A DNA stretch of 64,000 nucleotides from the NCBI GenBank assembly GCA_964202905.1, contig CAXNJO010000005.1, positions 160,001-224,000 on the forward strand, in the 5' to 3' direction. A program made the translations under genes and the position numbers. This document shows, piece after piece, positions 1 to 20,826 of the stretch; position 1 is the stretch's first letter; each line of letters starts with the position of its first letter. This DNA comes from Polyangiales bacterium. GTDB lineage: Bacteria > Myxococcota_A > Polyangia > Polyangiales > JADJQN01. Under the pieces are notes generated by a model. That model worked only from the letters and a program-made list of their open reading frames with translations, had not been told where the DNA came from and made no database searches.

Positions 1-3000
1 CTCGCAGCGCTCGTTGCAGCCGTCGCCGGCGACGAGGTTCGCGTCGTCGCACAGCTCACCGACGCCGCGGATCCCGTTGCCGCAATTCGACGCGCAGGCC
101 GCGTCGGGCGTGGGCCGCGCGAAGCCGGGCGCGCACTCGCACGTGAACGGCGCGCCGAGCACGTTCACGCAGATCTCACCGGATTCGCAGCGCCCGGTGC
201 CGTCGGCGCACTCGTCGACGTCGGCGCAAGTCACGCCGCTGCCCTCGTAGCCCGGGTTGCACGCGCAGGCGTACGAGCCCGGCGTGTTGGTGCAGGCGGC
301 GAGCAGCGAGCACTCGTTGAGCGACGTGCTCGCGCACTCGTCGACATCGGTGCACGCGTTGCCCGGGCCCTCGTAGCCCGCGTTGCACGTGCACGTGAAG
401 CCGCCGTCGATGTTGGCGCACGCGGCGTTCGCGTCGCAGTCGTCCGTCCCGAGCGCGCACTCGTCGACGTCCGAGCAGGTGCCGCCGAAGCCGGGCGCCT
501 CGTAGCCCGCCGGACACGAGCAGAAGTACTCGGTCGGCAGGCCCTGCACGCAGGTGCCGACGCCACACGGCAGCGGTCCGCACTCGTTGATGTCGATGCA
601 GCGTCCCTCCTCCGCGAGGAAGCCCGCCGGGCACGTGCACGCGTAGGAGCCCGCGGTGTTCGCGCACGTGCCGGGGTCGCAGGGAGACCCGGCGCACTCG
701 TCGACGTCGGCGCAGGCGCCGCCCGTCGCGGGCGCCGCGTAGCCCTCCAGGCACTCGCAGGCCCAGGTGCCGGGGAGGTTGGTGCAGGCCGCGCGCGCGT
801 CCCCGCACGTCGTCGCCGTCGCGCACTCGTCGATGTCGTCGCACACGCCGCCCGTCGCGGGCGCCGCGTAGCCCTCGTTGCACGCGCACGCGTAGCTGCC
901 CGCCGTGTTCGTGCAGCCCGCGCGCTCCGCGCCGCACGTCGTCGCGGTCGCGCACTCGTCGACATCGGTGCACGAGCCGCCGGAGGCCGGGGCCACGTAG
1001 CCGCCCGGGCAGGTGCAGACGTAGCTGCCGCCGACGTTCGCGCAGGCGCCGAGCCCGCAGGGCGCGCCCGCCGCGCACTCGTCTACGTCGGTGCACGCGC
1101 CACCCGAGGCCGGCGCCGTGTAGCCCGCCGCGCAGCCGCACACGTAACTGCCCGCCGTGTTCGTGCACGTCTCGCGCGCGTCCCCGCACGTCTCACTGAA
1201 TGCGCATTCATCGACGTCCGCGCACGCCCCGCCCGCGGCCGGCGCCGTGAAGCCCGCCGCGCAGCCGCACACGTAGCTGCCCGCCGTGTTCGTGCACGAG
1301 GAGCGGGCACTCCCGCACGTCGCGCTGAGCGCGCATTCATCGACGTCCGCGCACGCCCCGCCCGCGGCCGGCGCCGCGAAGCCCGCTGCGCATGCACAGA
1401 CGTAGCTGCCCGCCGTGTTCGTGCAGCCTGCGCGCTGTGGGCCGCAGGTCGCGGCGTTCGTGCACTCGTTCACGTCGCTGCACGTGCCGCCCGTCGCGGG
1501 TCCGGCGTAGCCGGCGGGACACGTGCAGGCGTACGAGCCCGCGAGGTTCGCGCAGGCGCCGAGGCCGCACGGCACGCCCGTCGTGCACTCGTTGGTGTCG
1601 ACACACGTCGCCGAGAGGCCGCTGCCCGAGGTCCGGTACCCGGCGCCGCACGCGCACGCGTAACCACCCACCGAGTTGGTGCACGTCCCCGCGCCCGCGG
1701 ACGCGCCGCAGGTCGTCGGCGTCACGCACTCGTCCACGTCCGCGCAGGAGGCGCTGAGTCCGCTGCCCGAGGCCGCGAAGCCCGCGCCGCAGCCGCACGT
1801 GTAGCCACCCGACGTGTCCGTGCACGCGTTGACCGCGCCGCCGGTGAGCAGGCGCCCGCAGCGCGAGTCGGTCGCGCACTCGTCGACGTTGACGCACGAC
1901 GCCGTCAGGCCGCTGCCCGACGCCTGGAAGCCCGCGCCGCACGCGCACGCATAGGACCCCGACGCGTCCGTGCAGGCGTTGACGACGCCGCCCGTGAGCA
2001 CGCGTCCGCACTGCGACGCCGTCGCGCACTCGTTCACGTTCACGCACGTCGCGGTCGCGCCAGTGCCCGAGAGCACGAAGCCCGCGCCGCAGCCGCACGT
2101 GTAGCCGCCCGACGTGTCCGTGCACGCGTTGACGGCGCCGCCCGCGAGCGTCCGGCCGCACTGGGACGCGGTCGTGCACTCATCGACGTTCACGCACGTG
2201 GCCGTCGCGCCGCTGCCCGAGAGCACGAAGCCCACGCCGCAGCCGCACGTGAAGCCGCCCGACGTATCCGTGCACGTGTTCACCGTGCCGCCGGTGAGCG
2301 CGCGCCCGCACTGCGACGCCGTCGCGCACTCGTTCACGTTCGCGCACGTCGCCGAGAGCCCGCTGCCCGAGAGCGAGAAGCCCGCCCCGCAGGTGCAGGT
2401 GTAACCGCCCGTCGTGTCGGCGCAGGCGTTCACGCCGCCGCCCGTGAGCGCGCGTCCACACTGCGACGCCGTCGCGCACTCGTTCACGTTCGTGCACGTC
2501 GCCGAGAGGCCGCTGCCCGAGGCGCCGAAGCCCGCCGCGCACGTGCACGTGTACCCGCCCGACGTCTCCGTGCACGCGTTCGACGTCGACACGTCGCGCC
2601 CGCACGTCGCGGCCGTCGCGCACTCCGCGATGTCCACACAACTCGCGCTGAGCCCGCTGCCCGACGCCTGGAATCCCGCGCCGCACGCGCACGTGAAGCC
2701 ACCCGAGGTGTCCGTGCAGGCGTTGACGGTGCCGCCCGTGAGCGCGCGTCCGCACTGCGACGCGGTCGCGCATTCGTTCACGTTCACGCACGTCGCGGAG
2801 AGCCCGCTCCCCGAGAGCACGAAGCCCGCGCCGCACGTGCACGTGTAGCCACCCGTCGCGTCCGCGCAGGCGTTGACGCCGCCGCCCGAGAGCGCGCGAC
2901 CGCACTGCGACGCCGTCGCGCACTCGTCGACGTTCACGCACGTCGCCGACGCGCCGCTGCCCGAGAGCACGTAGCCCGCGCCGCAGCTGCACGTGAAGCC

Positions 3001-6000
3001 GCCCACCGTGTCGGTGCAGGTGTTGGTCGCCGAGAGGTTCTTGCCGCACGCCGTCGTCGCGAGACACTCGTTCACGTCGCCGCACGAGGCGCTGAGCCCG
3101 CTGCCCGTCGGCAGATAGCCGCTGCCGCACGCGCACGCGTAACTGCCGACGGAGTTCGTGCAGCCGTTCGTCGCGGAGAGGTTCTGCCCGCACGTCGTCG
3201 AGGTCGCGCACTCGTTGACGTCACCGCAGTTCAGCGTCGCGCCGCTGCCCGTCGTCGCGTAGCCCGCGCCGCAGCCGCACGTGAACGCACCGACCGTGTT
3301 GGTGCAGGTGTTGAGCGGCGAGAGGTCCTTGCCGCACGCCGACGCAGAGCCGCACTCGTTGACGTCCACGCACGCGGCGGTGAGGCCGCTGCCCGCGGCG
3401 GTGAAGCCGGTCGCGCAGCCGCATGCATACCCACCCGCCGAGTTCGTGCAGGTGTTGCTCGCCGAGAGGTCACGGCCGCAGGTCGAGGCCGTCGCCGTGC
3501 ATTCGTTGATGTCCGCGCACGTCGCGCTCAGGCCGGAGCCAGAGGCCTGATAGCCGCCCGTGCAGCCGCACGCATACCCACCCACCGAGTTCGTGCACGT
3601 GTTGCTCGCCGAGAGGTTCTTGCCACATGCGCTCGCGGACGCGCACTCGTCCACGTCCACGCACGTCGCCGACGCGCCGCTGCCCGAGAGCACGTATCCG
3701 GCGCCGCAGCCGCACGTGAAGCCGCCCACCGTGTCGGTGCAGGTATTGGTGGCCGAGAGGTTCCTGCCGCACGCCGTCGTCGCGAGACACTCGTTCACGT
3801 CACCGCACGACGCGCTGAGCCCGCTGCCCGTGGGCAGATAACCGCTGCCGCACGCGCACACATAACTGCCGACGGAGTTCGTGCAGCCGTTCGTCGCGGA
3901 GAGGTTCTGCCCGCACGTCGACGGTCGTCGCGCACTCGTTGACGTCGCCGCAACTCAACGTCGTGCCGCTGCCCGTCGTCGTGTAACCGGCGCCGCACCC
4001 GCACGTGAACGCGCCCACGGTGTTGGTGCAGGAGTTGAGCGACGAGAGGTCCTTGCCGCACGCCGACGAGGAGCCGCACTCGTTCACGTCCACGCACGCG
4101 GCGGTGAGTCCGCTGCCCGCGCTCTGGAAGCCCGCTGCGCAGCCGCACGCATAGCCACCCACCGAGTTCGTGCAGGTGTTGGTCGCCGAGAGGTCACGGC
4201 CGCAGGTCGAGGCCGTCGCCGAGCATTCGTTGATGTCCGCGCAGGTCGCGCTGAGACCGGAGCCGGAGACTCTGGTACCCCGCCGTGCAACCGCACGCGT
4301 AGCCGCCCACGGAGTTCGTGCAGGTGTTGCTGGCGGAGAGGTTCTTGCCGCACGCCGTCGACGCCACGCACTCGTCGACGTCGACGCACGTCAGCGTGGC
4401 GCCGCTCCCCGACGACGCGTAGCCCCCCGCGCAGCCGCACGTGTAACCGCCGCTGTTGTTCGTGCACGTGTTCGACGCCGAGAGGCTCCGACCGCACGCG
4501 GAGGTCACCGCACACTCATCGACGTCGACGCAGGTCAACGAGGCGCCGCTCCCCGACGACGCGTAGCCCGAGCCGCAACCGCACGAGAAACCGCCCACGG
4601 TGTTCGTGCAGGTGTTGGTCGCGGAGAGGCTCTGCCCGCACGTCGTGGTCGTCGCGCACTCGTTGGTGTCGACGCACGTCGTGCCGTTGAAGTTGTAGCC
4701 GGTCGGACACGAGCAGCTGTACGAGCCGGTCGCGTTCGTGCAGGTGCCGAGTCCGCACACCGAGCCGCTCGAGCACTCGTTCACATCCACGCACGTCGTG
4801 CCGTTCGACGTGTAGCCCGCCGGGCACGAGCAGTTGTAGGAGCCGGCCGAGTTCGTGCAGGCGCCGACGCCGCACACCGAGCCGCTCGAGCACTCGTTGA
4901 CGTCCGTGCAACCCGTCCCGCCCGAGGCGACGGTGCGCCCGTTGCCCGTGTAGCCGGACGGGCACGCACAGGTGTAGCTCGTGGGCGTGTCCGTACAGAC
5001 CGCGACCGAGGGGACACACACGTTCATGCCCGTCGTGCACTCGTTCTCGACGACGCAGGTCGTGCCGTCGAAGCCATATCCGCTGCTGCACGAGCACGAG
5101 TAGCTGCCCGTGGCGTTCGTGCACGTGCCGTAGCCGAGGTTCGCCGCGCAGGTCGTCGACGTGCTGCACTCGTTCACATCACCGCAGCTCGCGCTGAGGC
5201 CGCTTCCCGTGCCTTGATAGCCGCTGCCGCAGGCGCACGTGTAGCCGCCGACCGTGTTCGTGCACGTGCCGTATCCGACGTTGACGTTGCAGGTCGCGAC
5301 GTTGCTGCACTCGTTGACGTCCGCGCAGGTGGCCGAGAGACCGCTGCCCGAGAGGACGAAACCCGAACCGCACGCGCACGTGTATCCGCCCGAGGTGTCG
5401 GTGCAGCCGTTGAGCGCGGAGAGGTTCTTGCCGCACGCAGAGGCCGATGCGCACTCATCCGCGTTGACGCACGTCGCCGAGAGGCCGCTGCCCGAGACCA
5501 CGAAGCCCGCGCCGCACGAGCACGCGTAGCCGCCCGACGTGTCGGTGCAACCGTTGACGCTCCCGCCCGAGAGCGTGCGGCCGCACTGCGCGGTGGTCGC
5601 GCACTCGTTCACGTTCACGCACGTCGCCGACAGCCCGCTGCCCGAGGCGACGTAGCCCGCGCCGCACGAGCACGTGTATCCGCCCGTCGTGTCCGTGCAG
5701 GTGTTGCCCGCGGAGAGGTCCTTGCCGCACGCCGTCGACGACGTGCACTCGTTCACGTTCGCGCACGTCTCGGTCGCGGTGCCGTTCCCGCTCACCGCGT
5801 AGCCGGCGGCGCAGGTGCAGTCGTAGCCGCCCGCGAGGTTCGCGCAGGTGTTGCTCGTCGAGAGGTCCTTGCCGCACGCGGTCGACGACGCGCATTCGTC
5901 GTTGTCCGCGCAGGACTCGCTCAGCGTGCCCGAGCCCGTCTCGGTGAAGCCCGAGCCGCACGCGCAGCCGTAGCCGCCGGAGCTGTTCGTGCAGACGTTG

Positions 6001-9000
6001 GACGCCGAGAGGTTCTTCGCGCAGGCCGTCGCAGGCGCGCACTCGTCGAGGTCCGCGCACGACGCCGAGAGCCCGGTGCCCGTCGCGCCGAAGCCCGCGC
6101 CGCACGTGCACGCGAACCCGCCCGACGTGTTGGTGCAGGCGTTCGCGCCCCCGCCCGCCAGGTCACGCCCGCACTGCGAGGTCGTGCCGCACTCGTTCAC
6201 GTCGACGCATGTCGCGCTGAGCCCGCTGCCCGAGAGCACGAAGCCCGCACCGCACGTGCAGGCGTAGCCGCCCGAGCTGTCCGAACAGCCGTTGACGCTG
6301 CCGCCCGTGAGCGTGCGGCCGCACTGCGAGGCGGTCGCGCACTCGTTCACGTTCACGCACGTCGCGGAGAGCCCGCTGCCCGAGGCGACGTAGCCCGCGC
6401 CGCACGCGCACGTGTATCCGCCCGTCGTGTCCGTACACGTGTTGTCCGCCGAGAGGTCCTTGCCGCACGCCGTCGACGACGTGCACTCGTTCACGTTCAC
6501 GCACGTCTCGGTCGCGGTGCCGTTGCCGCTCACCGTGTAGCCGGCCGCGCACGTGCAGTCGTAGGCGCCCGCCAGGTTCGCGCAGGTGTTGCTCGCGGAG
6601 AGGTTCTTTCCGCACGCGGTCGCCGACGCGCACTCGTCGTCGTCCGCGCACGTCTCGCTGAGCGTCCCCGAGCCCGTCTCCGTGAAGCCCGTGCCGCACG
6701 CGCAGCCGTAGCCCCCCGAGCCGTTCGTGCAGACGTTCGACGCCGAGAGGTTCTTCGCGCACGCCGTCGACGCCGCACACTCATCGACGTCCACGCACGT
6801 CGCGCTCAGCCCCGTGCCGGAGAGCGCGAAGCCCGCGCCGCACGTGCACAGATAGCCCCCGGAGCTATCCGAGCAGACGTTGACGCTCCCGCCCGTCAGC
6901 GTGCGTCCGCACCGCGAGGCCGTCCCGCACTCATCCACGTTCACGCACGTCGCGCTGAGACCGCTCCCGGAGGCCGTGAAGCCCGCGCCGCACGTGCACG
7001 CATAACCTCCGGAGCTGTCCGAGCAGGCGTTGACGCTCCCGCCCGTGAGCGTGCGGCCGCACTGCGAGGCCGTGCCGCACTCATCCACGCTCACGCACGT
7101 CGCGCTCAGCCCGGTTCCCGAAGACGTGAATCCCGCGCCGCACGTGCACGTGTATCCGCCGGTCGTGTCGCTGCAGGTGTTCGTGCCGGAGGCGCCGAGA
7201 TCCTTGCCGCATGCGGTCGCCGACGCGCACTCATCCACGTTCACGCACGTCTCGGTCGCCGTGCCGTTGCCGCTCACGGTGTAGCCCGCGGCGCACGTGC
7301 AGTCGTAGCCGCCGGCGGCGTTCGCGCAGGTGTTGCTCGCCGAGAGGTTCTTGCCGCACGCCGTGGACGCCGCGCACTCGTCCGTATCGACACACGTCTC
7401 GCTGAGCGTGCCCGAGCCCGTCTCGGTGAAGCCCGCCGCGCACGCGCAGCCGAAGCCGCCCGAGCTGTTCGTGCAGGTGTTGGAGGCCGAGAGATTCTTG
7501 CCGCACGCGGTCGCCGCGGCGCACTCGTCGAGGTCCGCGCACGACGCCGTCGCGCCGCTGCCCGTTGCGCCGAAGCCCGCGCCGCACGTGCACGTGAAGG
7601 AGCCCGACGTGTTCGAGCAGGCGTTCACGGTCCCGCCCGTCAGCGTGCGCCCGCACTGCGAGGCCGTCGTGCTGCACTCGTTCAAATCCGCGCACGACGC
7701 GGAGAGACCGCTCCCCGACGCCGCGAAGCCCGTCCCGCAGGTGCACGCGTAGCCGCCCGACGAGTCCGAACACGAGTTGAGCGCCGACAAATCCTTGCCG
7801 CACGCCGTCGACGACGTGCACTCGTTCACGTTCACGCACGTCGCCGTCAGGCCGCTGCCAGACGCCGTGTAGCCCGCGCTGCACGTGCACGAATACCCAC
7901 CTGACGAATCCGAACACGTGTTGAGCGCCGACAAATCCTTGCCGCACGCCGTCGACGACGCGCACTCGTTCACGTTCACGCACGTCGCCGTCAGTCCGCT
8001 CCCGGAGGCCGTGTAGCCCGCGCCGCACGTGCACGAAAACCCACCTGACGAATCCGAACACGTGTTGAGCGCCGACAAGTCCTTGCCGCACGCCGTCGAC
8101 GACGCGCACTCATCCACGTTCACGCACGTCGCGCTCAGCCCGCTTCCCGAAGACGTGAATCCCGCGCCGCACGTGCACGCGTAGCCGCCCGACGAGTCCG
8201 TGCAGGAGTTCACGCTCCCGCCCGTCAGCGTCCGACCGCACTGCGACGTCGTCCCGCACTCATCCACGTTCACGCACGTCGCGCTCAGCCCGCTTCCCGA
8301 AGACGTGAATCCCGCGCCGCACGTGCACGCGTAGCCGCCCGACGAGTCCGTGCAGGAGTTCACGCTCCCGCCCGTCAGCGTCCGACCGCACTGCGACGTC
8401 GTCCCGCACTCATCCACGTTCACGCACGTCGCGCTCAGCCCGCTTCCCGAAGACGTGAATCCCACGCCGCACGTGCACGCGTAGCCGCCCGACGAGTCCG
8501 TGCAGGAGTTCACGCTCCCGCCCGTCAGCGTCCGACCGCACTGCGACGTCGTCCCGCACTCATCCACGTTCACGCACGTCGCGCTCAGCCCGCTTCCCGA
8601 AGACGTGAATCCCGCGCCGCACGTGCACGCGTAGCCGCCCGACGAGTCCGTGCAGGAGTTCACGCTCCCGCCCGTCAGCGTCCGACCGCACTGCGACGTC
8701 GTCCCGCACTCATCCACGTTCACGCACGTCGCGCTCAGCCCGCTTCCCGAAGACGTGAATCCCGCGCCGCACGTGCACGCGTAGCCGCCCGACGAGTCCG
8801 TGCAGGAGTTCACGCTCCCGCCCGTCAGCGTCCGACCGCACTGCGACGTCGTCCCGCACTCATCCACGTTCACGCACGTCGCGCTCAGCCCGCTTCCCGA
8901 AGACGTGAATCCCGCGCCGCACGTGCACGCGTAGCCGCCCGACGAGTCCGTGCAGGAGTTCACGCTCCCGCCCGTCAGCGTCCGACCGCACTGCGACGTC

Positions 9001-10214
9001 GTCCCGCACTCATCCACGTTCACGCACGTCGCGCTCAGCCCGCTTCCCGAAGACGTGAATCCCGCGCCGCACGTGCACGCGTAGCCGCCCGTGCTGTTCG
9101 CGCAGGTGTTCGTGCCCGAGCTCCCGAGATTCTGACCACACGTCGAGGTGGTGCTGCACTCGTTGGTGTCCGCGCACGACTCGCTCAGCGTGCCGTTGTT
9201 CCTCACCGAAAAGCCGGCGCCGCACGTGCAGTCGTACGCCCCGCTCGAGTTCGTACAGCTGTTGACGCTGCCGCCCGTCAACGTGCGACCGCAGGTCGAG
9301 GAGGTCGAGCACTCGTTGTCGTCCGCGCACGACTCGCTCAGCGTGCCGCTGCCCGTCACCGAGAAGCCGGCGCCGCACGTGCAGTTATAGCTACCCGCGG
9401 AGTTCGTACAGGAGTTGGCGCTGCCGCCGGTCAACGAGCGACCGCAGGTCGAGGCGGTCGAACACTCGTTGATGTCCGTGCAACCGGTCGCGCCGCTGTC
9501 GGAGATGCCGTCGGAAAGGTGGTCGACGCGACCGTTGCCGGTGTAGCCCGCGTCGCACGAGCAATCGAAACCGAAATACCAGGAGCCCGTCGGCTCCCCG
9601 GACAGCGAGCTCTCAGCGTCGTCCTCCGCACAGTCCACGTAGCTCCCCGACGCGCAGTTCGTGAAGGCGAACGACGAGGAGGAGAGAACGGAGTCGAGGT
9701 AGCACTCGTTCGTGTCGTAGCTGGTGCTGCTGCCCGGGCGCGTGGAATAGGCCGTGTACGGGTCCGCGGTGCCCGGCGTCCACGACGAGCTCGTGTAGAC
9801 GAGCTCGTGCCAGTTGGGTTTGCCGTCGCTGTCGGAGTCCTCCGTGCGGAGCGCAGCGTCCCAGGAGAACGCGGTGTGGGTGCCCACCCCCGAGCGCGTC
9901 CAGGCGGTGCCGAAATCACTCCCGAAGATGTTCCAACACTTGCCGTACGAGTTCGTGACGGTGTCGTTGGCCGTGGTGCACGCCGTGGTGCCGGGGTCAG
10001 TGGCACAACAGTTCTCGCCCGCGCTGCAAGGCGGAGAGGGGCAGTTGCTGCCGCCGTAAGCGTTGTTGTGACAGGTCAGGCAACCATGCGTCGCGCCGTT
10101 CGGGACGTCGTCGAGGTAGAACGACCAGGCGGCCGCCCGCGACGCGAAGGCGCCCATCGCGAGCAGCGCGAGCGAACACCACAGCGAGAGTGTGTTGAGC
10201 CGAACCGACGACAT
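1..10214 (-). CDS. Giant secreted calcium-binding EGF-repeat surface protein with N-terminal CxxCH temptin-like domain (3' end outside window; two apparent +1 frameshifts at ~4270 and ~3920)
   Basis: Signal peptide, then CLTCH, then roughly 65 repeats of D-x-[DN]-E-C...C-x-[DN]-x4-[YF]-x-C-x-C-x2-G-[YF]. The 2008-aa ORF (4194..10220) leaves frame at YQ/SLRLR, resumes in ORF 3800..4162, then continues in a third frame that is still coding at base 1 (SNCGNGIRGVGELCDDANLVAGDGCNERCE, a Myxococcus Cys-rich repeat). GGGGGAG RBS lies 5 nt before ATG 10214. Confidence 0.88.
2941..4390. repeat. Higher-order ~723-bp duplication (five EGF units) within the giant gene
   Basis: The block starting cgtcgccgacgcgccgctgcccgagagcac at 2941 recurs at 3664 with colinear, diverged downstream sequence. 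Confidence 0.75.
8105..9091. repeat. Near-perfect 150-bp tandem repeat, ~6.6 copies (50-aa EGF unit)
   Basis: catccacgttcacgcacgtc recurs at 8111, 8261, 8411, 8561, 8711, 8861 and 9011. The only difference seen is at 8464 (Ala->Val). Confidence 0.95.
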
Positions 10215-10298
10215 GGTCACTCCCCCAGACGACGACGAGACGAACCCGGAACCTGCGAACTGAGACCCACGCCCCGCGCCGCGGAACGCGCGAGTCGC

Positions 10299-12776
10299 TC
10301 AGCGTCGCGGGCGGCGACGGCGCGAGACGCGCGCAGCAAGCAGCGCGACGAACCCGAGCGCGAGCAGCGTCGGGCCCGAGTCGCGCGACGACCCGCCCGC
10401 CGCGCGGCAGCCGCAGCCCCCGTCGGACGCCGGGCCGGGCGGCGGCAGCGAGGCGTCGCCCGCGCCCCCGTCGGGCACGCCACCGTCGGCCGCGCCCGCG
10501 TCCCCGACGCCCATATCCGCCGGCGGATTGCCACAGAACGGGTCGTCGACGTGCTCGCAGTCCTGCATGTCGGCCGTGCAGCGGTCGGTCGTGCACGGGT
10601 CGGCGTCGTCGCAGACCGTCGCCGGGCCGCAGAGACACTGCGAGTCGGCCAGATCGATCCGGCCGTCACAATCGTTGTCGATGGTGTCCTCGCAGGCCTC
10701 GGAGGCGCGCGGTGTGATGGCGGCGTCGGTGTCGTCGCAGTCGGCGCCGAAGCGGTCCTCGCCGAGGTCGAGACAGTCGCCGTCGCCGGTGTCGTCGATG
10801 CCCATCCCGCAGAAGCCGTCACGGTCGCGGTCGAGCAGGTAGAAGCAGCCGGTGTCGAGGAGGTCGACGTCGCCGTCGCAGTCGTCGTCCTTCGCGTTGC
10901 CGCAGGCCTCCGTCGAGCCCGGGTTCAGCTCCGCGCGTCGGTCGTCGCAGTCGCTCACCGCGAGGTTCTCGCCGCTGTCGAGGCAGTCGCCGTCCCCGTT
11001 GAGGTCGCGGCCGATCGGACAATAGCCGTCCATGTCCGCATCGACGTCACGCACGCAGTCGGTGTCGTCGCGGTCGACGCTGCCGTCCTGATCGTTGTCC
11101 TTGCGGTCGAGGCAATTCTCACGCGCCGTCGGATAGATGGTCGGATCGTAGGGCGCGACGTCGGTGCCGCCGCCCTGCTCGGCGGTGTCGGAGCAGTCAC
11201 CGTCGCCGTTCGTGTCCGGACCGATCTCACACCAGCCGTCACGATCGAAATCGAGGTAGCGCGTCGAGCACGACGAGTCGTAGGCATCGATGCTGCCGTC
11301 ACAGTCGTTGTCGACGGCATCGGTGCAGAACTCGGTCGCCGCCGGGTTGAGCGCGGCGGCGGCGTCGTCGCAATCGGTGCTGCCGCTCTCCTCGCCTGCA
11401 TCCGCACAATCGCCGTCGGTGTTGCGATCGAAGCCGACGAAGCAATACCGATCGCGGTCACCGTCGAGATATCCGGCGCAGTCCACATCGGCGAGGCTCA
11501 CGACGCCATCGCAGTCGTCGTCGATCGCGTTCGTGCAGAGCTCGCCGAGCCCGGGGCTGCGCGCGGCGCTCGCGTCGTCGCAGTCGACGACGCTGCCCTC
11601 CTCGCCCGGATCCGCGCAGTTTCCGTCGCCGTCGAGGTCGCGCCCGCCGGGGCAGTAGCCGTCGCCGTCGCCGTCGCCGAGCCGCGCGCAGGCCTCGTCG
11701 AGGAAATCGACGAATTCATCGCAGTCGTTGTCGAGTCCATCACCGCACGTCTCGGCGAGCCCGGGGCTGACCATCGGGTTCGCGTCGTCGCAGTCGGAGG
11801 TCCCCGACGCCTCACCGGCGTCGCGGCAGTTGCCGTTGCCGTTGAGGTCCCGCCCGATCGGGCAGTAGCCGTCCATGTCGTCGTCGCCGTCACCCGTGCA
11901 GCGCGGGTCGGCGAGGTCGATGAGCGCGTTGCAGTTGTTGTCGATGCCGTCGCCGCAGTTCTCGCCGCCGCCCGGCTTCACGGTCGCGCGGGTGTCGTCG
12001 CAATCGACCGTCCCGTCGTCCTCCCCCGCGTCGGTGCAGTCCCCGTCGCGGTTCATGTCGCGGCCCATCACGCAGGCGGAGTCGCCATCGGCGTCGAAGA
12101 CGCTCGCGCACTCGGAGTCCGAGCGCGGCGCCTGTCCGTCACAGTCGTTGTCGAGGCCGTTGGCGCAGATCTCGGTGATGCCCGAGTTCACCGTCGACAT
12201 CGTGTCGTCGCAATCGACCGCGGCACTCGCCGTCGTCTCCTCGGGGCTGGTGCAGTCACCGTCCGCGTCGAGGTCACGGCCGAAGTAGCAATAGCCGTCC
12301 ATGTCGGCGTCGCGCAGGCCGGGGTTGTCCGACGGGAAGCCGGGACGCGTGCGGTAGGCGGGGACGCCGGGGGCCGGCTGGCCGGGCCGCCAGACACCGA
12401 GCGGATCCTGCAATTCCTGGCCGTTCGTGAAGCCGTCCATGTCGGCGTCCATCCCGGCGAGCGCGGCGCTCCAGGCGAACGACGCGGTGCGGAACTGGGT
12501 GCCGAAGGGGTTCAGGCAGAACGGGACGTCGGTGGCGCCGTAGACGTCCATCCCCACGCAGCCCGAGCCGCCGTCGGGGTTGTTGTGGCAGTTGATGCAA
12601 GGCCGCACCGTGCCGACCGAGTTGGCCGTCGTCGCCGGGTTCGGGACGCGCGCCGCGTAGTACTCGTGCGCCGAGGCGGAGAGCGGCGCGACGGTCACGA
12701 CACAAAACGCGAGGCCGAGTGTCGATGCGATCCGGATGCGGTCCACGGCCCCTCGTATGAAGTTGGGAAGACGCAT
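10299..12776 (-). CDS. MYXO-CTERM surface protein: CxxCH temptin-like domain plus 8 Asp/Cys-rich putative Ca/metal-binding (MopE-like) repeats
   Basis: Signal peptide ending ASA, then CINCH and NPFG...W...DADMDGFTNGQELQDP. Eight repeats of DxDxDG[YF]C...DCDD...PG..E.C.DG.DNDCDG follow. C-terminus is GGCGC + hydrophobic stretch + RRRRPRR. Likely start is ATG 12776. Confidence 0.88.
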   Translation of the reverse strand: MRLPNFIRGAVDRIRIASTLGLAFCVVTVAPLSASAHEYYAARVPNPATTANSVGTVRPCINCHNNPDGGSGCVGMDVYGATDVPFCLNPFGTQFRTASFAWSAALAGMDADMDGFTNGQELQDPLGVWRPGQPAPGVPAYRTRPGFPSDNPGLRDADMDGYCYFGRDLDADGDCTSPEETTASAAVDCDDTMSTVNSGITEICANGLDNDCDGQAPRSDSECASVFDADGDSACVMGRDMNRDGDCTDAGEDDGTVDCDDTRATVKPGGGENCGDGIDNNCNALIDLADPRCTGDGDDDMDGYCPIGRDLNGNGNCRDAGEASGTSDCDDANPMVSPGLAETCGDGLDNDCDEFVDFLDEACARLGDGDGDGYCPGGRDLDGDGNCADPGEEGSVVDCDDASAARSPGLGELCTNAIDDDCDGVVSLADVDCAGYLDGDRDRYCFVGFDRNTDGDCADAGEESGSTDCDDAAAALNPAATEFCTDAVDNDCDGSIDAYDSSCSTRYLDFDRDGWCEIGPDTNGDGDCSDTAEQGGGTDVAPYDPTIYPTARENCLDRKDNDQDGSVDRDDTDCVRDVDADMDGYCPIGRDLNGDGDCLDSGENLAVSDCDDRRAELNPGSTEACGNAKDDDCDGDVDLLDTGCFYLLDRDRDGFCGMGIDDTGDGDCLDLGEDRFGADCDDTDAAITPRASEACEDTIDNDCDGRIDLADSQCLCGPATVCDDADPCTTDRCTADMQDCEHVDDPFCGNPPADMGVGDAGAADGGVPDGGAGDASLPPPGPASDGGCGCRAAGGSSRDSGPTLLALGFVALLAARVSRRRRPRR

Positions 12777-12786
12777 GAACAGCGCC

Positions 12787-13983
12787 TCAGTTGCGGGTGA
12801 TGCGGAGGCGATAGGGAGCGGGTGCGGTGGCGCCGAGGTCGGAGGCGCGCACCCAGATCGTGTAGACGCCCGTCGGCAGGCCCTGCGCATCGACGCTCGG
12901 GCACGGCGCGCCCGTCACCGGTGTGCCGCGCGGATTGCCGAGCGCATCGCGGAGTTGGATCGTGTAAAGCGTGCTCGAGGGGCTCGTGCACACGGCACCC
13001 GCCGCGGTGAGCGAGTCGACGCGGATGTCGGTGCCCATCGTATCGACGCGCACCTCGAAGACGTCGGGATAACAATCCCCACCGCCGCCGACGTCACCGG
13101 AGATCTCGACCTCCGTCGTCGTCGCGCCGACGAACAGCACCTGATTGGCCTCGACCGAGTTGTCGTTGAACTCGGCCTCGGTGGGGAAGTCACCCATCGT
13201 CGTGCGGCCGACGAGCTTGCGACAATTCGGGGAGCAGGTCCCCGACGCCATGTCGTCGCAGGACTCGCCGTGCTCCTGGATGCCGTTGCCGCACTGCGGG
13301 CGGAAGGCGTCGAGCTGGTAGTGGCCGCCGCCCGGATTCGCGTCGTCGATGCCGATGTAGAAGCGGCCGGGCGCAGGCGCGACGAACGCGAAGTGCTCGT
13401 CGGAGCGGCCCGCGCACGAGTTTGCGAAGACCGCGGCGCAGTTCGTCGGCCGGTCGTTGCAGCCGCCGGCGCCGTCGCTGCCGACGACGTAGACGATGGG
13501 GTCGCGCATCGTTTCGGTCGGCGCGAACATCGGATCGGCCGCGACGTGGAAGTGCCAGTACTCGCCGGCGGCGACGTCGATCGCGAAGTAGCGGTCGTTG
13601 CCGCGCGCAGTCGAGCCGGCGCACGAGGGCGTGAGCGAGGAGGCCGTGGCGTCCGTCGTGTCGATCTTGAGCGAGCGCGTCGTGCCCGCGAGCACGAGCG
13701 TCATCGGATCGCCGCAGATGTCGGCCGCCACTGCTACCGGCGGGCCGAGGTCGGGCGAGCCGAGATCCGGATCGCCGAGGTCGGGCGAGCCGAGATCCGG
13801 ATCGCCGAGGTCGATGCCGGCGTCGAAACCGGCGTCCACGGTCCCCGATGGGAGCGACTCGTAGAAGGACGCGTCGACCACGAAGCAGCCCGAGAGCCCG
13901 ATGGCGACGAGGGGCGCGCCGACCGCCGCGAGGCCGGTGCGCAGGGGACGGAGAAGCGAAACGTGCATGTGGGTCGTGGCCAT
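12787..13983 (-). CDS. Lipoprotein with DLGxP linker, PPC-like beta domains and a Myxococcus Cys-rich repeat
   Basis: Lipobox LSGC, (DLGDPDLGSP)x2, CGNGIQEHGESCDD and G.YYI.ID / G.YTIWV-type motifs. Ends 10 bp upstream of the next gene. Confidence 0.75.
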   Translation of the reverse strand: MATTHMHVSLLRPLRTGLAAVGAPLVAIGLSGCFVVDASFYESLPSGTVDAGFDAGIDLGDPDLGSPDLGDPDLGSPDLGPPVAVAADICGDPMTLVLAGTTRSLKIDTTDATASSLTPSCAGSTARGNDRYFAIDVAAGEYWHFHVAADPMFAPTETMRDPIVYVVGSDGAGGCNDRPTNCAAVFANSCAGRSDEHFAFVAPAPGRFYIGIDDANPGGGHYQLDAFRPQCGNGIQEHGESCDDMASGTCSPNCRKLVGRTTMGDFPTEAEFNDNSVEANQVLFVGATTTEVEISGDVGGGGDCYPDVFEVRVDTMGTDIRVDSLTAAGAVCTSPSSTLYTIQLRDALGNPRGTPVTGAPCPSVDAQGLPTGVYTIWVRASDLGATAPAPYRLRITRN

Positions 13984-13997
13984 GAGGGTCCTGGGTC

Positions 13998-14957
13998 TCA
14001 GAAGCGGTGCACGAAGCCCGCGACGCCGCCGTGTGCGTCGAGGGAGAGCGTGGGGAGCGTGCGGAGCGTGGCGCGTGTGGCCGGCGCCGCGGCCTCGCCA
14101 CCGCCCCAGTCGGTGAGGAAGAAGAGCACGGCCGTCGCCGCGCCGAACACGACGGTCCCAGCGAGGAAGACGTTGGTGAGCAGCTGCCGCGAGGCGGCGT
14201 CATCGTGAAGGAGCTTCGCCTGCGACTGCTGCGCGCCGGGCGCAGTGGCGTAGGTCTCGTAGTCGTCGTTCAGCGCAAGGGTGTCGAGACCCGCCCAGAT
14301 CGAGAGCCCACCCGCGACGGCCGTGAGCCCACCCGCGACGAAGAAGAGCGCGGGCGGCGTGCCACCGCTCGCGTCGGCGCCCGTCGGCGGCGGTGTGGGC
14401 TGCTCGCCCCCGCCCTGCTGCTGCGCGAGCTGCTCGCGCTCCGCGGCCTCGCGCGCTTCGCGCTCCGCGGCCTCACGCTGCTGCTCCGCGGCGCGCTCGC
14501 GCTCGCCCGCTGCGGCCTGATCGCGCTGCTCGATGGCCGTGCGGAGCACGCGGATGCGCGCCTCGATTTCGGTGCGATTGGCGACGTTCGGATCCGCGGC
14601 GAGGAAACGCTCGAAGGTCGAGAGCGCCTCGTCATCCTGACGAAGGCGATCGAGCGTCGTCGCGATGTTGAAGAGCAGGCCCGGGCGCGGGCTCGCCTCG
14701 TAGGCCTGACGGAACCGGGCGAGGGCCGTCGTGTAGTCGCCCTCGCCGAACGCGGTGCGGGCCGACTCGAACAAGAGCCGCGCGGCCTGATCGAGCGAGC
14801 CAGGCGCGGTGCCCCCCTGGGCCTGCGGCGCCGCCGGCGTGCCCGCGTCCGGCGAAGTACGCGGCTGCGCGGCGACGCGCGTGGCGCCGCTCGCAACGGT
14901 GGCGATCATCACCGCCGCGACGACCGCCGTCGCAGAGGCCCGCTTTGCATCAAACAT
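13998..14957 (-). CDS. Secreted/membrane TPR protein with C-terminal hydrophobic hairpin
   Basis: ARLLFESARTAFGEGDYTTALARFRQAYEASPRPGLLFNIA TPR pattern, two TM segments, terminal GFVHRF. GGAGG RBS before ATG 14957. Confidence 0.85.
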   Translation of the reverse strand: MFDAKRASATAVVAAVMIATVASGATRVAAQPRTSPDAGTPAAPQAQGGTAPGSLDQAARLLFESARTAFGEGDYTTALARFRQAYEASPRPGLLFNIATTLDRLRQDDEALSTFERFLAADPNVANRTEIEARIRVLRTAIEQRDQAAAGERERAAEQQREAAEREAREAAEREQLAQQQGGGEQPTPPPTGADASGGTPPALFFVAGGLTAVAGGLSIWAGLDTLALNDDYETYATAPGAQQSQAKLLHDDAASRQLLTNVFLAGTVVFGAATAVLFFLTDWGGGEAAAPATRATLRTLPTLSLDAHGGVAGFVHRF

Positions 14958-15135
14958 CCATCCCCTCCACCTGGTTCGTGAACGACGGGACGCTAGCATG
15001 ACTGGACTTTGCGTTGCACGGGTCCAGATCTCCGAGCAGGTCGATTGGGTCCGGGGCCTCGATCGTCCAGAAATATCTGCCCCGTCCATGTGGCGAGCCG
15101 CGCCGCGATGTTAGAGTCGGCCTGCGAGGAGCGCG

Positions 15136-16314
15136 ATGCGACGAGCACACTGGCGAATCTGGGCGGCCCTCACCCTCAGCCTCGGCGTCCCGGCCTGCGG
15201 CCACGACGGCCTGATCCTCCCCGATGCAGGCCTGCCGCCGGCGGACCAGGGGGTCGATGGGGCGGACCCGGCCGACCTCGGCAGCGCGGATCTCGGCGGT
15301 GACGACCTCGGCGGTGACGACCTCGGCGGGGCGGATCTCGGCCCCGGGGACGCAGGCCCCGCGGACCTCGGTCCCGAAGACGCCGGTCCTCCGGACCTCG
15401 GCGCACCGTGCAGCGGGCCTCCGGGCCTGTACATCGAGGGCTCGTGCACGATCCTCGCCCCGGGCGTGCGCCCGTACTCCCCGCGCTACGTGCTCTGGTC
15501 CGACAGCGCGCAAAAGGATCGCTTCATCTCGCTGCCGAGCGGCGCACGGATCGACACCTCGAACCCGGACGCGTGGGTCTACCCGCTCGGAACGAAGCTA
15601 TGGAAGACGTTCTCGCGCGACGGGGTGCGCCTCGAGACGCGCTTGCTCGAGAAATTCGCCACCGACATCGGCCCGTCCGCGTGGCGCATGCGGGTGTTCG
15701 CGTGGAACGTCGAGCAGAACCGCGTGAGCGAGGTGACCGAGGGCCGGATGAACGTCCTCGGCACCGATCACGACATCCCCTCGCAGGCCGACTGCGTCCG
15801 CTGTCACGACAACGCGACCCGCGACGCGTCGCTCAGCTTCACCGCCATCCAACTCAACCACGCCGGCACCCCGCTCTCGCTGCAGACCCTGCTCGACGAG
15901 GGCCGGCTCTCGCACCCGATCGCGACGAGCGACGCGGTGGTCCCCGGCGACCCGATGGCGCGCGATGCGCTCGGCTACCTGCACGCCAACTGCGGTCACT
16001 GCCACGGCGGACCGATGCCGCAGGCGGGCATGCGGCTCTGGGTCGACGTCGGTCTGCGCACGGTCGAGGAGACGGGTACGTGGGTGACCGCCGTCGATCA
16101 GATCAGCGGCTGGCTCGCGACCGTGCCACCCACGGTCACCGCGCGCATCGCGCCCGGCGATCCCGGCGCGAGCGCCGTGATCCGGCGCATGTCGCTGCGC
16201 GGCTCGCCGACGATGACGACCGACTACGCGAACCAGATGCCGCCCCTCGGCACGAAGCACGTCGACACAGCCGGCGTCGAGCGCGTGCGAGCCTGGATCG
16301 AGTCGCTGCCCTGA
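15136..16314 (+). CDS. Diheme c-type cytochrome lipoprotein (SO2930-like)
   Basis: Lipoprotein-type signal ending PAC and a DLGGD linker. Motifs LWSD.A.K.R, YP.GT.L.KTF, ETRLL, CVRCH (15793-15807), YLHANCGHCH (CxxCH at 15991-16005), PGDP..S and QMPPLG. Confidence 0.85.
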   Translation: MRRAHWRIWAALTLSLGVPACGHDGLILPDAGLPPADQGVDGADPADLGSADLGGDDLGGDDLGGADLGPGDAGPADLGPEDAGPPDLGAPCSGPPGLYIEGSCTILAPGVRPYSPRYVLWSDSAQKDRFISLPSGARIDTSNPDAWVYPLGTKLWKTFSRDGVRLETRLLEKFATDIGPSAWRMRVFAWNVEQNRVSEVTEGRMNVLGTDHDIPSQADCVRCHDNATRDASLSFTAIQLNHAGTPLSLQTLLDEGRLSHPIATSDAVVPGDPMARDALGYLHANCGHCHGGPMPQAGMRLWVDVGLRTVEETGTWVTAVDQISGWLATVPPTVTARIAPGDPGASAVIRRMSLRGSPTMTTDYANQMPPLGTKHVDTAGVERVRAWIESLP

Positions 16315-17738: not shown

Positions 17739-17866
17739 GGCGGCGGGGTATACGGAGATCCGCGCGGATTCGCAACCTCCGCGTGCGCGCGCGGCGGGCC
17801 GCGGCCCGGCCAGGGACCGCGCGACGCTGGCCCTCGGCACGCACCCCGCGCTACCCTCGGCGGCCC

Positions 17867-18250
17867 ATGACGGCCTTGCTCCAGTCCTCGCAAGCGCTCC
17901 CGGGCGGCTACGGCGCCACGTTGTTGCAGACGCTCCTCGCGCTGGCGGCGGTCTGCGTGCTCGCGTGGGTCGTGCTGCGCTGGGGCGCGCAGCGCGGGCT
18001 CGGGACGGGTCGCCTCGCAGGGCGCGTGCGCGTCGTCGAGCGCATCCCGCTCGACCCGCGGCGCTCGCTCTACGTGGTGAAGGCGGGAGAGCGCGTGCTG
18101 CTGCTCGGCGTCGGCGACGGCGCGGCGCCCTCGCTCCTCACGGAGTTGGACGCATCTCTGTTGCCGGCGCAGCCCGAGCCTCGCCCCGGGGAGGCGCGCT
18201 TCCGGGAGGTCCTCGCCCGCCTTCGCGGGGGCACGCCCCCCGGCGTGTGA
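17867..18250 (+). CDS. fliO: FliO/MopB family protein
   Basis: Single TM helix followed by RVRVVERIPLDPRRSLYVVKAGERVLLLGVG...LLTELD. Confidence 0.85.
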   Translation: MTALLQSSQALPGGYGATLLQTLLALAAVCVLAWVVLRWGAQRGLGTGRLAGRVRVVERIPLDPRRSLYVVKAGERVLLLGVGDGAAPSLLTELDASLLPAQPEPRPGEARFREVLARLRGGTPPGV

Positions 18251-18475: not shown

Positions 18476-20659
18476 TCACTCGGCCGCGGCCGGGAGCGCC
18501 TTCTTCGAGAAGTCGACGGAGAGCGCGAGCATCTCCGCGACGTCGAGCTGCTTGATCTCTTCTTCCTTGTCCTCGGCCTTGATGCCGTCGGAGATCATCG
18601 TCATGCAGAACGGGCAGCCCGAGGCGAGCGTCTTGGCGCCGGTGTCGAGGAGCTGCAGCGTGCGCTTCTTGTTCACGCGGTGCTCGTTCTGCTCCTCCAT
18701 CCACATCTGCGCGCCGCCCGCGCCGCAACACAGCCCCTTGTTCTTGTTCCAGTAGGGGACCTCGACGAGCTCGACGCCGGGGATGCGCGAGAGGATCGCG
18801 CGCGGGGAGTCGTAGACGTCGTTGTAGCGGCCGAGGTAGCAGCTGTCGTGGTAGACGACGCGCCCCTCGACGCGCTTCTCGGGGACGAGCAGGCCGCGTG
18901 CGACGAGGCCGTTCAGGAAGTCCGTGTGGTGCACGACCTCGTAGCGGCCGCCGAGCTGCGGGTACTCGTTGAGCAGCGTGTTGAAGCAGTGCGGGCACGC
19001 CGTGATGATCGGCTTCTTGTCGATGCCGTAGCCGTTCAGCGTCTCGACGTTGCCCTGCGCGAGCATCTGGAAGAGGTACTCGTTGCCCGCGCGCCGCGCC
19101 GGGTCGCCGGTGCAGTTCTCTTCGCTGGCGAGGATCGCGAACTTCACGCCCGCGTGCTGGAGGAGCTGCGCCGTCGAGCGCGCGACCTTCTTGGCGCGGT
19201 CGTCGTAGCTCGCCGCACAGCCGACCCAGTAGAGGACGTCGAACTCGCCGCCCTCGCCGACCACCGGGATGTCGAGCCCGTCGGCCCAGTCGCCGCGCGA
19301 CATGCGCGAGAGGTTCCAGGGGTTGCCGTTGGTCTCCATCCCGCGGAAGGGCTTCTCCAGCTCGGGCGGGAACTCGTTCTTCGACATGACCTGATCGCGG
19401 CGCATCGACACGATCTTGTCGACGTACGTGATCATCACCGGGCAGTGCTCCTCGCACGCGCGGCACGTCGTGCAGGCCCAGATGACGTCGGGGTGCACGA
19501 TGTTGGGGACGAGCTCGACGTCGGACGAGTCGCGGAAGTAGCCGCCCGCCGGCGCCGGGGGCGTGGTGTGGAGCGAGGGGCGGACGCCGTCGGCGTCGGG
19601 GCCGAGCGCGCGGGTCGCGTTCACCGGCACGTCGCCGGCCCCGATGAGCGCGGCCTCGGCGTCGTTGAGGTGATCGCGGAGCGCGAGCGTGAGGTGCTTC
19701 GGCGAGAGCATCTTGTCCGTGGTGTAGGCGGGGCAGTTGTCGCTGCAGCGCCCGCACTCGGTGCAGGTGTAGAGGTCGAGGTTGTCCTTCCACGAGAGGT
19801 CACGCGCGCTGCGGATGCCGATGGGCTCCTCGCGCTCGATGCGGCCCTCGATGTCGTCGACGGGCGGCAGCGCGCCACGCGGCGTCTGGTTGCGCGTGAA
19901 CACGTTGGGGAGCGACGTGATGATGTGGAAGTGCTTGGAGTACGGGAGCAGGTTGCCGAAGAAGAGCACCATGCCCGAGTGCCACCAGAAGCCCGCGTGC
20001 TCGAGGCCGCGGAGCCACGCGTTGGGGAGGGTATCGAGCGCCATCGCGACGATGGAACCGACGGGCTCCCAGACGTGGAAGGCGGGGCTCCCTCCGGCGA
20101 TGCGTGCCTCGCGGGCGATCGCCGCGCCGACGTAGAGGAAGTCGGAGAGCATCATCGAGATGATGATGCCGAGGATGACGAGGCCCTCGACGCCGAGGGT
20201 CATGCGCTGCGAGCGCGCGACGACGCGGAGATAGACGAACACGAGGGCGCCGAGCACGACGGCGGCGGCGAACAGCTCCTTCAGGAGGCTGTACCCGTCG
20301 CCGAGGAACGTGCCCCGCGCGAAGACGCCGAAGAGGTCGAAGTGCTCGTCGTAGCCGCGACCCCAGAGGAGGATCGTGTTGAGCGTGAGCACCCCGAAGC
20401 CGCCGAAGATCGCGATGTGCGCGAGGCCGGCGGCGCGGTAGCGCCCCTGCGGCATGCGGCGCTGACCGAGCGCGTAGACGGCGACGTCCACGAGGCGGTT
20501 GACCAGCTCCGGCAGGGCCGCGGCCACGCTCGTCGCGCTCGCCAGGGTGAAGCGAGGCTCGGGCGCGCCCGAGAAGAGCTGCGCCCAGCGCCGGTTGGCC
20601 GTCCACGCGAAGAAGCCGGCGGCGGCCACCAGCGCGAGGGTCATCAAGATCGGTTGCAT
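18476..20659 (-). CDS. Membrane-bound Fe-S oxidoreductase (FadF/HdrD-like, CCG domains)
   Basis: N-terminal TM helices, CTECGRCSDNCP, CTTCRACEEHCP, WVGC, CPHC, YHDSCYLGR and CCGAGG. Confidence 0.92.
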   Translation of the reverse strand: MQPILMTLALVAAAGFFAWTANRRWAQLFSGAPEPRFTLASATSVAAALPELVNRLVDVAVYALGQRRMPQGRYRAAGLAHIAIFGGFGVLTLNTILLWGRGYDEHFDLFGVFARGTFLGDGYSLLKELFAAAVVLGALVFVYLRVVARSQRMTLGVEGLVILGIIISMMLSDFLYVGAAIAREARIAGGSPAFHVWEPVGSIVAMALDTLPNAWLRGLEHAGFWWHSGMVLFFGNLLPYSKHFHIITSLPNVFTRNQTPRGALPPVDDIEGRIEREEPIGIRSARDLSWKDNLDLYTCTECGRCSDNCPAYTTDKMLSPKHLTLALRDHLNDAEAALIGAGDVPVNATRALGPDADGVRPSLHTTPPAPAGGYFRDSSDVELVPNIVHPDVIWACTTCRACEEHCPVMITYVDKIVSMRRDQVMSKNEFPPELEKPFRGMETNGNPWNLSRMSRGDWADGLDIPVVGEGGEFDVLYWVGCAASYDDRAKKVARSTAQLLQHAGVKFAILASEENCTGDPARRAGNEYLFQMLAQGNVETLNGYGIDKKPIITACPHCFNTLLNEYPQLGGRYEVVHHTDFLNGLVARGLLVPEKRVEGRVVYHDSCYLGRYNDVYDSPRAILSRIPGVELVEVPYWNKNKGLCCGAGGAQMWMEEQNEHRVNKKRTLQLLDTGAKTLASGCPFCMTMISDGIKAEDKEEEIKQLDVAEMLALSVDFSKKALPAAAE

Positions 20660-20826
20660 GGCGGGCCGATATAGACGCGAATCGGGGCGCTTACCAGAGC
20701 GAATCGCGCACCGCGGCACGCCCGCCGCGCGGCTACGTGGGGAGACGCCGCAGCGCGACGCCACGGGGAACGGCGCGCGCGTGACCGAACATCACGGGCG
20801 CGACTGAACCGCGATTCAGTGCCGGG

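Follow-up and report, generated by a model that had tools for sequence, protein, structure and literature searches.

Introduction

Several described systems bear on the subject of this work, a gene cluster of a Polyangiales bacterium in which predicted single-heme head domains sit on stalks that carry surface-sorting signals. In Geobacter sulfurreducens, PgcA transfers electrons by tethered diffusion (PMC11520253, PMC10570954), and in cytochrome f the N-terminal amine of the protein ligates the heme iron (PMC6616624, PMC3138771). In the working model for myxobacterial proteins with a MYXO-CTERM tail, cleavage takes away the cytoplasmic tail together with the membrane helix and leaves the protein lipid-anchored at the cell surface (PMC11980579). 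Temptin is a pheromone of Aplysia, and its domain also replaces the DOMON domain at the N-terminus of some DBH-like copper monooxygenases (PMC2762978, PMC10075465).

The window is the whole stretch of 64,000 nucleotides that we analysed (assembly GCA_964202905.1, contig CAXNJO010000005.1, positions 160,001 to 224,000), written below as G000:C5:160001-224000, where G000 is this genome and C5, C1 and C6 are contigs; positions without a prefix are those of the window. An earlier note on the same DNA had proposed that the cluster displays mono-heme heads at short and very long distances from the cell, and that these may be functionally coupled to a diheme lipoprotein encoded next to them. Our analysis goes beyond that note in three respects, namely the identity of the head as a temptin domain, the likely ligation of its iron by the N-terminus, and a third head gene.

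Results

The cluster contains four minus-strand genes in the order TPR protein, lipoprotein, gene A and gene B, and their close spacing, already remarked upon in the earlier note, is confirmed at 14, 10 and 84 bp (the last gap is 78 bp if the start of B is taken at the GTG at 10220). Gene A (10299-12776, minus strand) encodes 825 aa with a signal peptide, a head, eight MopE-type Asp/Cys repeats and a MYXO-CTERM segment (10311-10424, minus strand); Pfam matches to Temptin_C (E 1e-11) and, in eight stretches, to Cu-binding_MopE, together with a TIGR03901 match of 24.6 bits against a cut-off of 20, bear out the repeats and the tail that had been read into this protein. Gene B starts at 10214, runs on the minus strand past position 1 of the window to G000:C5:159389, and encodes a signal peptide, a head, cbEGF units, Cys-rich repeats and a MYXO-CTERM-like tail; EGF-like units counted by pattern number 65, in agreement with the earlier figure of about 65. 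Signal peptides and export were judged from the N-terminal sequence by reading. The two heads can be aligned over about 115 residues, each with a single CxxCH (12585-12599 in A and 10068-10082 in B, both on the minus strand, located by sequence), so that the common head domain proposed for A and B stands. The mature head of A (12324-12668, minus strand; delimited by alignments, an AF2 model and register counts) has a predicted N-terminus at His37 and contains a DxDxDG loop of Ca-binding type. A sequence pattern search found no CxxCH within the stalks of A or B, which upholds the earlier view that these proteins do not form a heme wire.

On sequence grounds we identify the head as a bacterial temptin domain, Pfam PF24784 (Temptin_C). 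Against the family cut-off of 27 bits, head A scores 52.6 and a further head of the genome, on contig C1, scores 54.6, while heads B and C (the latter from a third gene described below) fall just short at 26 and 22 and can both be aligned with head A. An hhalign comparison of the head with the oyster temptin-like protein P0229 gave 97.7% over 48 columns. Bacterial heads and eukaryote-type temptins have in common a PN, a His, an NxFG, a Trp, the pattern DxDxDG..N..EL and the register of the N-terminus. The DxDxD element is invariant in all 131 distinct heads and fits the DSDXD Ca-binding motif of temptin (PMC10075465). In a joint alignment, in which several eukaryote-type rows are metagenome proteins classed as eukaryotic by likeness alone, the His is invariant in 15/15 rows, and the eukaryote-type members read xxxGH, with both Cys gone. 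A Cys pair that flanks the Ca loop in 16 of 18 eukaryote-type members is absent from heads A-C and present in 7/133 bacterial heads. In seven myxobacterial heads (L012, L043, L044, L047, L050, L052 and L053) CxxCH occurs together with this Cys pair of the eukaryote type; these heads are possible intermediates.

Conservation of CxxCH among homologues, on which the earlier note had made its proposal depend, is extensive: the motif is present in 71 of 74 homologues, in 127 of the 131 distinct heads that proteins and loci together gave, and in 131/137 domains of a newly returned set of 50%-cluster representatives, 130 out of 143 of which contributed domains. Heads that lack it are all either Cys-less eukaryote-type temptins or N-terminally truncated sequences, and every full-length bacterial head examined keeps the exact five-residue motif. 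From composition alone, 0.015 copies would be expected in A and 0.09 in B, and CxxCH occurs in just three of the 39 Cys-rich repeat frames of the genome, all three of them head genes; because of these low figures, we do not regard the motif as a product of chance or a by-product of Cys-richness. The genome encodes CcmE and three Cytochrom_C_asm (PF01578) genes, and an exported CxxCH in a cell with cytochrome c maturation genes normally carries attached heme. Covalent heme on the head is thus predicted with high confidence and, since the heme-attachment motif is kept, the head is likely an unrecognised c-type cytochrome. Below its cut-off (E 1.6e-6), the NCBIfam model for a 'GEGP motif diheme protein' also matches this region of the proteins. 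We note that one distant relative, L017 (G026:C131), is fused to a second heme domain of this GEGP diheme type, and that another, P0220, has up to seven tandem CxxCH-DxDxDG repeats; both look like multiheme versions of the head module.

The AF2 model of head A is confident (pLDDT 85.7). A fold search returned none of 48,161 PDB chains at Z>=2, Foldseek gave no match in the PDB, and a search of a viral structure library gave none either, which does not in itself prove a new fold; weak MauG rows in the Foldseek search were dismissed as noise. Searches of solved structures by sequence yielded no match for the head or the diheme protein apart from weak EF-hand-like hits to the DxDxDG loop, and the head has no significant match to any cytochrome family or solved cytochrome, and none in sequence or fold to cytochrome f.

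No His, Met or Lys is conserved past CxxCH in the 131-head alignment. The N-terminal side is far more regular: 105 of the 117 heads scored have Ala nine residues ahead of a conserved Pro (14 of the 131 were unscored), and a small residue (Ala, Ser or Gly) occupies that site in 116 of 123 scored independent representatives (20 of 143 unscored), so that a signal-peptidase-type site stands in fixed register with the head. Fourteen eukaryote-type proteins extend far enough at the N-terminus to be compared, and 13 of them keep the register; the exception, P0073, also has Tyr in place of the His. Taken together, the fixed register and the lack of a conserved distal side chain suggest ligation in the manner of cytochrome f, and we lean slightly towards the N-terminal amine of the processed head as the sixth iron ligand.

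We examined 74 genome loci with heads, of which 23 hold orthologues of A and 51 hold other heads. Named relatives with the cluster are Polyangiales/Sandaracinaceae-like Myxococcota. The lipoprotein gene lies directly upstream of A at 21 of the 23 orthologous loci and the TPR gene is present at 20; synteny with a diheme gene, which the earlier note had proposed as a check on its idea, was found at 19, with the adjacent SO2930-like gene divergent at 16 and downstream at three. Two of the 23 loci break off too early upstream, and at two all of the neighbours are missing. At 11 of the 23, A is directly followed by a second CxxCH head gene, in one case fused in frame. The picture was similar in 151 genomes sampled evenly from the order, with an A-type head (E<1e-30) in 15 genomes, the lipoprotein gene adjacent in all 15 and the diheme gene in 13; in the other two the head lies on a contig that ends nearby. 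A-type heads have a mean column identity of 71%. In one lineage (L090, L092 and L155) a distant diheme paralogue, with 26-29% identity, lies downstream instead, a different position which suggests that a diheme gene was recruited to the cluster repeatedly. We also note that in P0007, P0031, P0033, P0039, P0042, P0085 and L091:908-5785 an A-type and an EGF-type gene share one frame, with a MYXO-CTERM and a second signal-like segment between them; these may reflect read-through, overlapping starts or a processed polyprotein.

The diheme gene (15136-16314, plus strand) is divergent from the other four and encodes a 392-aa SO2930-like lipoprotein with two CxxCH motifs (15793-15807 and 15991-16005, plus strand, located by sequence), as had been reported before. 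A lipobox is followed by a low-complexity Asp/Gly linker, a predicted beta-sheet domain that ends in the first CxxCH, and a cytochrome c domain that resembles class I in the family alignment and in Pfam. The family alignment has invariant C, H and M columns, with the Met of the second domain conserved. The protein matches TIGR03806 over model positions 22-314 (E 3e-34; 118.6 bits, below the cut-off of 313.3), and the genome's above-cut-off member of that family is on contig C6. The structure model of the protein is of poor quality, with a pLDDT of 49.8; in a fold comparison, its N-domain has cytochrome c'-beta and P460 in the first three rows (Z 6.2, 5.6 and 5.4; rmsd 3.9-4.0 over 110-115 aligned residues), Foldseek places P460 first at E 0.11, and Pfam P460 matches weakly in two of 13 family members. 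A P460/cytochrome c'-beta-like N-domain can be regarded as a lead only. At L148-L151, close dihemes at headless loci adjoin a different lipoprotein, in one member of which a CxxCH was seen, and on this basis the diheme protein may pair with various surface cytochromes.

In the assembly, gene B is split across three frames by two +1 frameshifts at about 4271 and 3923. The extra bases responsible (4270-4272 and 3921-3926) are left out in short-read contigs: the first site is covered by three of four short-read runs (X1, X3 and X4), all without the base, and the second by all four (X1-X4), again without it. Because the short-read contigs omit both bases, B is a single gene of about 3,607 aa that ends at C5:159389 in its own MYXO-CTERM-like tail, and we rejected real frameshifting or pseudogenisation. 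A third head gene, C, begins 38 bp past B and lies outside the window (C5:159351 to about 154081); it encodes a head close to that of B with the N-terminus AAA/YPGY, about 27 EGF units and a MYXO-CTERM-like tail, and shows several frameshifts in the repeats of the assembled sequence. The MYXO-CTERM features, that is the Cys motif, hydrophobic helix and Arg tail, were assigned by TIGR03901 in A and by reading the sequence in B and C. A fourth gene, G000:C1:890365-892011 (L001, L159), also joins a head to EGF repeats, in which it is frameshifted, and is not linked to TPR, lipoprotein or diheme genes.

Of 41 longer bacterial proteins scanned, 40 have the head at the N-terminus, where it mostly precedes Ig, cohesin, CHRD, fn3 or EGF domains; most of these proteins end in surface-sorting (T9SS-type) tails, and one also has cytochrome c7/c3 domains. 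Five database proteins have two heads per chain. Neither of our broadest tallies is a head count: the total of 158,289 at E<=0.001 came from a representative-search profile that took in T9SS tail columns, and some of the 92 of 401 genomes of the phylum that matched in the head search did so by weak hits. Among the loci L094-L144, proteins of about 220 aa with a head and a T9SS tail are common in Bacteroidota, Ignavibacteriota and others, and multiheme genes stand near a few of them (23 CxxCH at L098, 13 at L120, and 8 and 6 at L144). A quick tree, which is unrooted, was built from 80 of 151 rows over 103 columns; in it the Cys-less temptins form one group (SH-aLRT 95), which sits in a branch (SH-aLRT 96) with three CxxCH heads of this order; the tree suggests that eukaryotic temptins may derive from a myxobacterial-like source. 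We also observed a temptin-monooxygenase fusion in a diatom (P0074) and a temptin in an oomycete (P0232).

The remaining genes of the cluster encode a TPR protein (13998-14957, minus strand; about 319 aa, exported, TPR_19 above cut-off, with a hydrophobic C-terminal part), which we predict to be a scaffold or assembly factor, and a 398-aa lipoprotein (12787-13983, minus strand; TIGR02232) with PPC-like domains, one Cys-rich acidic repeat and no CxxCH in its sequence, whose look-alikes in the Atlas are DUF4215/PPC proteins of Myxococcota. A search of 17 loci found no regulatory motif shared between the diheme and TPR starts; no promoter-like site was found, and terminators occurred at chance level. 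Further along the window, a gene that we take from sequence likeness to be SctR/FliP-like (16351 to about 17000, minus strand) converges on the diheme gene, and a presumed FliO-like gene follows at 17783-18250 (plus strand); both possibly belong to a needleless type III system. The SctR/FliP-like gene was rejected as a cluster member, as it was not found at other loci. The gene at 18476-20764 (minus strand) presumably encodes a membrane Fe-S oxidoreductase with CCG-type motifs, similar to heterodisulfide reductase.

Discussion

We have found a cluster, apparently undescribed in the literature searched but real and conserved, that encodes temptin-type heads with a heme-attachment motif on stalks with surface-sorting signals. 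As a tentative account, which we consider possible but not secure, the heads may act as tethered single-heme electron carriers, with the surface diheme protein as their likely partner. Starting from the observed order of signal-peptide-like N-terminus, head, stalk and MYXO-CTERM tail, the proteins would be exported by Sec, folded in the periplasm, lipidated, cleaved and delivered to the surface through type II secretion (T2SS), along the lines of the published MYXO-CTERM model, and, in the periplasm, the Ccm/Ccs gene products of the genome would attach heme at CxxCH. Processing would leave an N-terminus whose free alpha-amine serves as sixth ligand and gives a closed, low-spin heme suited to electron transfer. 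The Ca-binding repeats would set the reach, short and conserved in A, long and variable in B and C; a cbEGF unit is about 2.5-3 nm long, and with 65 such units the stalk of B could extend about 150-200 nm. Because the stalks carry no heme, the heads would have to be charged by bending back to, or otherwise meeting, the diheme protein or other heads, which is the weakest step of the account. The TPR protein and the PPC lipoprotein might act as scaffold or assembly factors, and tethered movement would carry electrons between the diheme lipoprotein and acceptors or donors on the outside.

Several observations weigh against this account. Heme, ligation and redox activity of the heads are predictions from sequence, and it is hard to picture how a 65-unit stalk contacts a membrane-proximal partner. 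The fixed register could instead meet a structural need for a set N-terminus, and the internal CxxCH repeats of P0220 manage without a free one. None of the 51 other head loci, which are mostly non-myxobacterial (Bacteroidota, Ignavibacteriota and other phyla), has a diheme gene by tblastn, with two weak hits by hidden Markov model (HMM). Conversely, all nine close-diheme loci checked elsewhere (L145-L153), some of them on short contigs, are without TPR, lipoprotein and head genes, as is the locus of this genome's own diheme paralogue, and in the 151-genome sample dihemes occur in 73 genomes against 15 with A-type heads. The nearest kin, G001-G003, yielded no head with the queries used, and eight loci share further flanking genes, so that part of the synteny reflects vertical inheritance among kin that are not independent. 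Because other head loci lack the diheme and dihemes occur without heads, we conclude that the head stands on its own as a widespread module, and that its arrangement in this cluster is specific to Polyangiales, with A at the core and the EGF-stalk genes as variable additions. The functional coupling of heads and diheme proposed in the earlier note therefore stands in part: the two are adjacent at 19 of 23 orthologous loci, but a dedicated pairing is supported only in part, as the diheme is multi-copy, occurs without heads and is missing from the 51 other head loci.

The heads might instead be heme c ligand traps or catalysts for NO, peroxide, hydroxylamine or sulfide that form, at graded distances, a layer which protects or which modifies the matrix, while the diheme protein does related surface chemistry. 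The missing conserved side-chain distal ligand also fits a five-coordinate heme, heads at the 51 other loci have no such diheme alongside, and the diheme N-domain finds its top fold rows in cytochrome c'-beta and P460, families that bind NO or oxidise hydroxylamine. We nevertheless regard this as doubtful, as those rows have Z below 8 in a poor model and the Pfam P460 matches are few and weak, and as the fixed N-terminal register would be left without explanation. A further alternative is that CxxCH is a disulfide or metal site, not a heme site, and the diheme gene a mere neighbour in a cluster for surface proteins. The proteins are rich in Cys, the head matches no cytochrome significantly, and the temptin literature gives disulfides and a Ca motif, not heme (PMC2762978, PMC10075465); but all full-length bacterial heads examined have the exact motif, eukaryote-type members lose both Cys together and keep the His, cytochrome c maturation genes are present, and other Cys-rich stalk proteins of the genome are without CxxCH. 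We consider this improbable.

It is also conceivable, though we think it unlikely, that the proteins are TraA-like adhesins or recognition receptors, in which any heme would serve as a structural cofactor in a head that binds, with display aided by the neighbours. Head, Cys-rich stalk and MYXO-CTERM recall TraA, a surface kin receptor (PMC11980579), animal temptin is called pheromone-complex 'glue' in the title of a paper, and genomes have several paralogues with variable stalks. However, A-type heads are conserved rather than polymorphic, and the adjacent diheme at 19 of 23 loci would be left without explanation. Redox sensing, which the earlier note had listed among its options, is very improbable. 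A surface-exposed heme domain is predicted, and genes read from sequence as kinase- and phosphatase-like flank the diheme at some loci, but the conserved core has no transducer gene and, in the working model, MYXO-CTERM processing strips the membrane helix and cytoplasmic tail (PMC11980579), so that a cleaved lipid anchor leaves no cytoplasmic output.

If borne out, the tethered-carrier account and the temptin assignment matter in several ways. A family known from mollusc pheromones and biomineralisation gains a direct biochemical question, whether temptin binds heme. The head points to a c-type cytochrome without a matched solved fold, possibly a further case of amine ligation, and this predicted cytochrome is found on surface-tagged proteins in several phyla. 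In Polyangiales the data define a conserved four- to five-gene surface cluster with a predicted redox function. As a joint proposal, which is speculative and more likely wrong than right in its entirety, temptin would be a cytochrome c class with N-terminal amine ligation; Polyangiales would display an array of heme-tipped stalks, stiffened by Ca and graded in reach, with a P460-like diheme at the surface to serve them; and eukaryotic temptins, among them the pheromone and the copper-monooxygenase fusion domain, would descend from a Polyangiales-like gene, would have lost the two Cys, and might retain heme b binding by way of the conserved His and the N-terminus. In the open-access literature we found no paper that pairs temptin with heme, and no bacterial temptin paper by title among the matches listed. 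The bacterial domain itself is already on record in databases, since it is in Pfam and the Atlas has bacterial Temptin_C clusters. A single heme at the tip of a non-conducting stalk is, apparently, also without description in the literature searched.

How, then, does the cluster compare with known systems? It differs from a multiheme wire or nanowire, which is a chain of closely spaced hemes, in that the stalks have no CxxCH. The diheme protein is like the SO2930 family (TIGR03806) in being a lipoprotein with two CxxCH motifs, and differs in scoring well below that family's cut-off. SO2930 is paired with a parallel beta-helix gene in Shewanella; within the window, no such partner gene lies beside the diheme. 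TraA, too, has a Cys-rich stalk. With TraA and other MYXO-CTERM proteins the head proteins share the order of signal peptide, head, stalk and MYXO-CTERM, but TraA is a polymorphic kin receptor, and the words 'heme' and 'cytochrome' appear nowhere in PMC11980579. Temptin offers a homologous domain, from which the bacterial heads differ in carrying CxxCH where the eukaryote-type has xxxGH and in riding on surface-tagged stalks; the temptin-monooxygenase fusion is described as lophotrochozoan-specific (PMC2762978), whereas we find the diatom fusion P0074 and temptins in bacteria; the oomycete temptin P0232 also falls outside lophotrochozoans. An analogy with DOMON was set aside as weak, the DOMON domain of human DBH being without heme ligands (PMC4846438). 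Cytochrome f and the N-terminal cytochrome domain of Cyc2/Cyt572 resemble the heads in layout, with one CxxCH about 15-25 residues past the signal-peptide cut; no match to cytochrome f was found in sequence or fold, and the heads have no porin barrel. Cyt572 starts AANA/YPGF, close to the AAA/YPGY of head C, and for it only the His is predicted as a ligand (PMC13741234). The closest working analogy is PgcA, whose extracellular monoheme c domains are likewise kept apart from their partners by tethers free of heme. Each PgcA chain carries three hemes and flexible PT-rich linkers (PMC11520253, PMC10570954); the heads described here have one CxxCH per chain and no fold match in the PDB searches, and are borne on disulfide/Ca repeat stalks, EGF or MopE-type, of up to 65 units with a MYXO-CTERM anchor.

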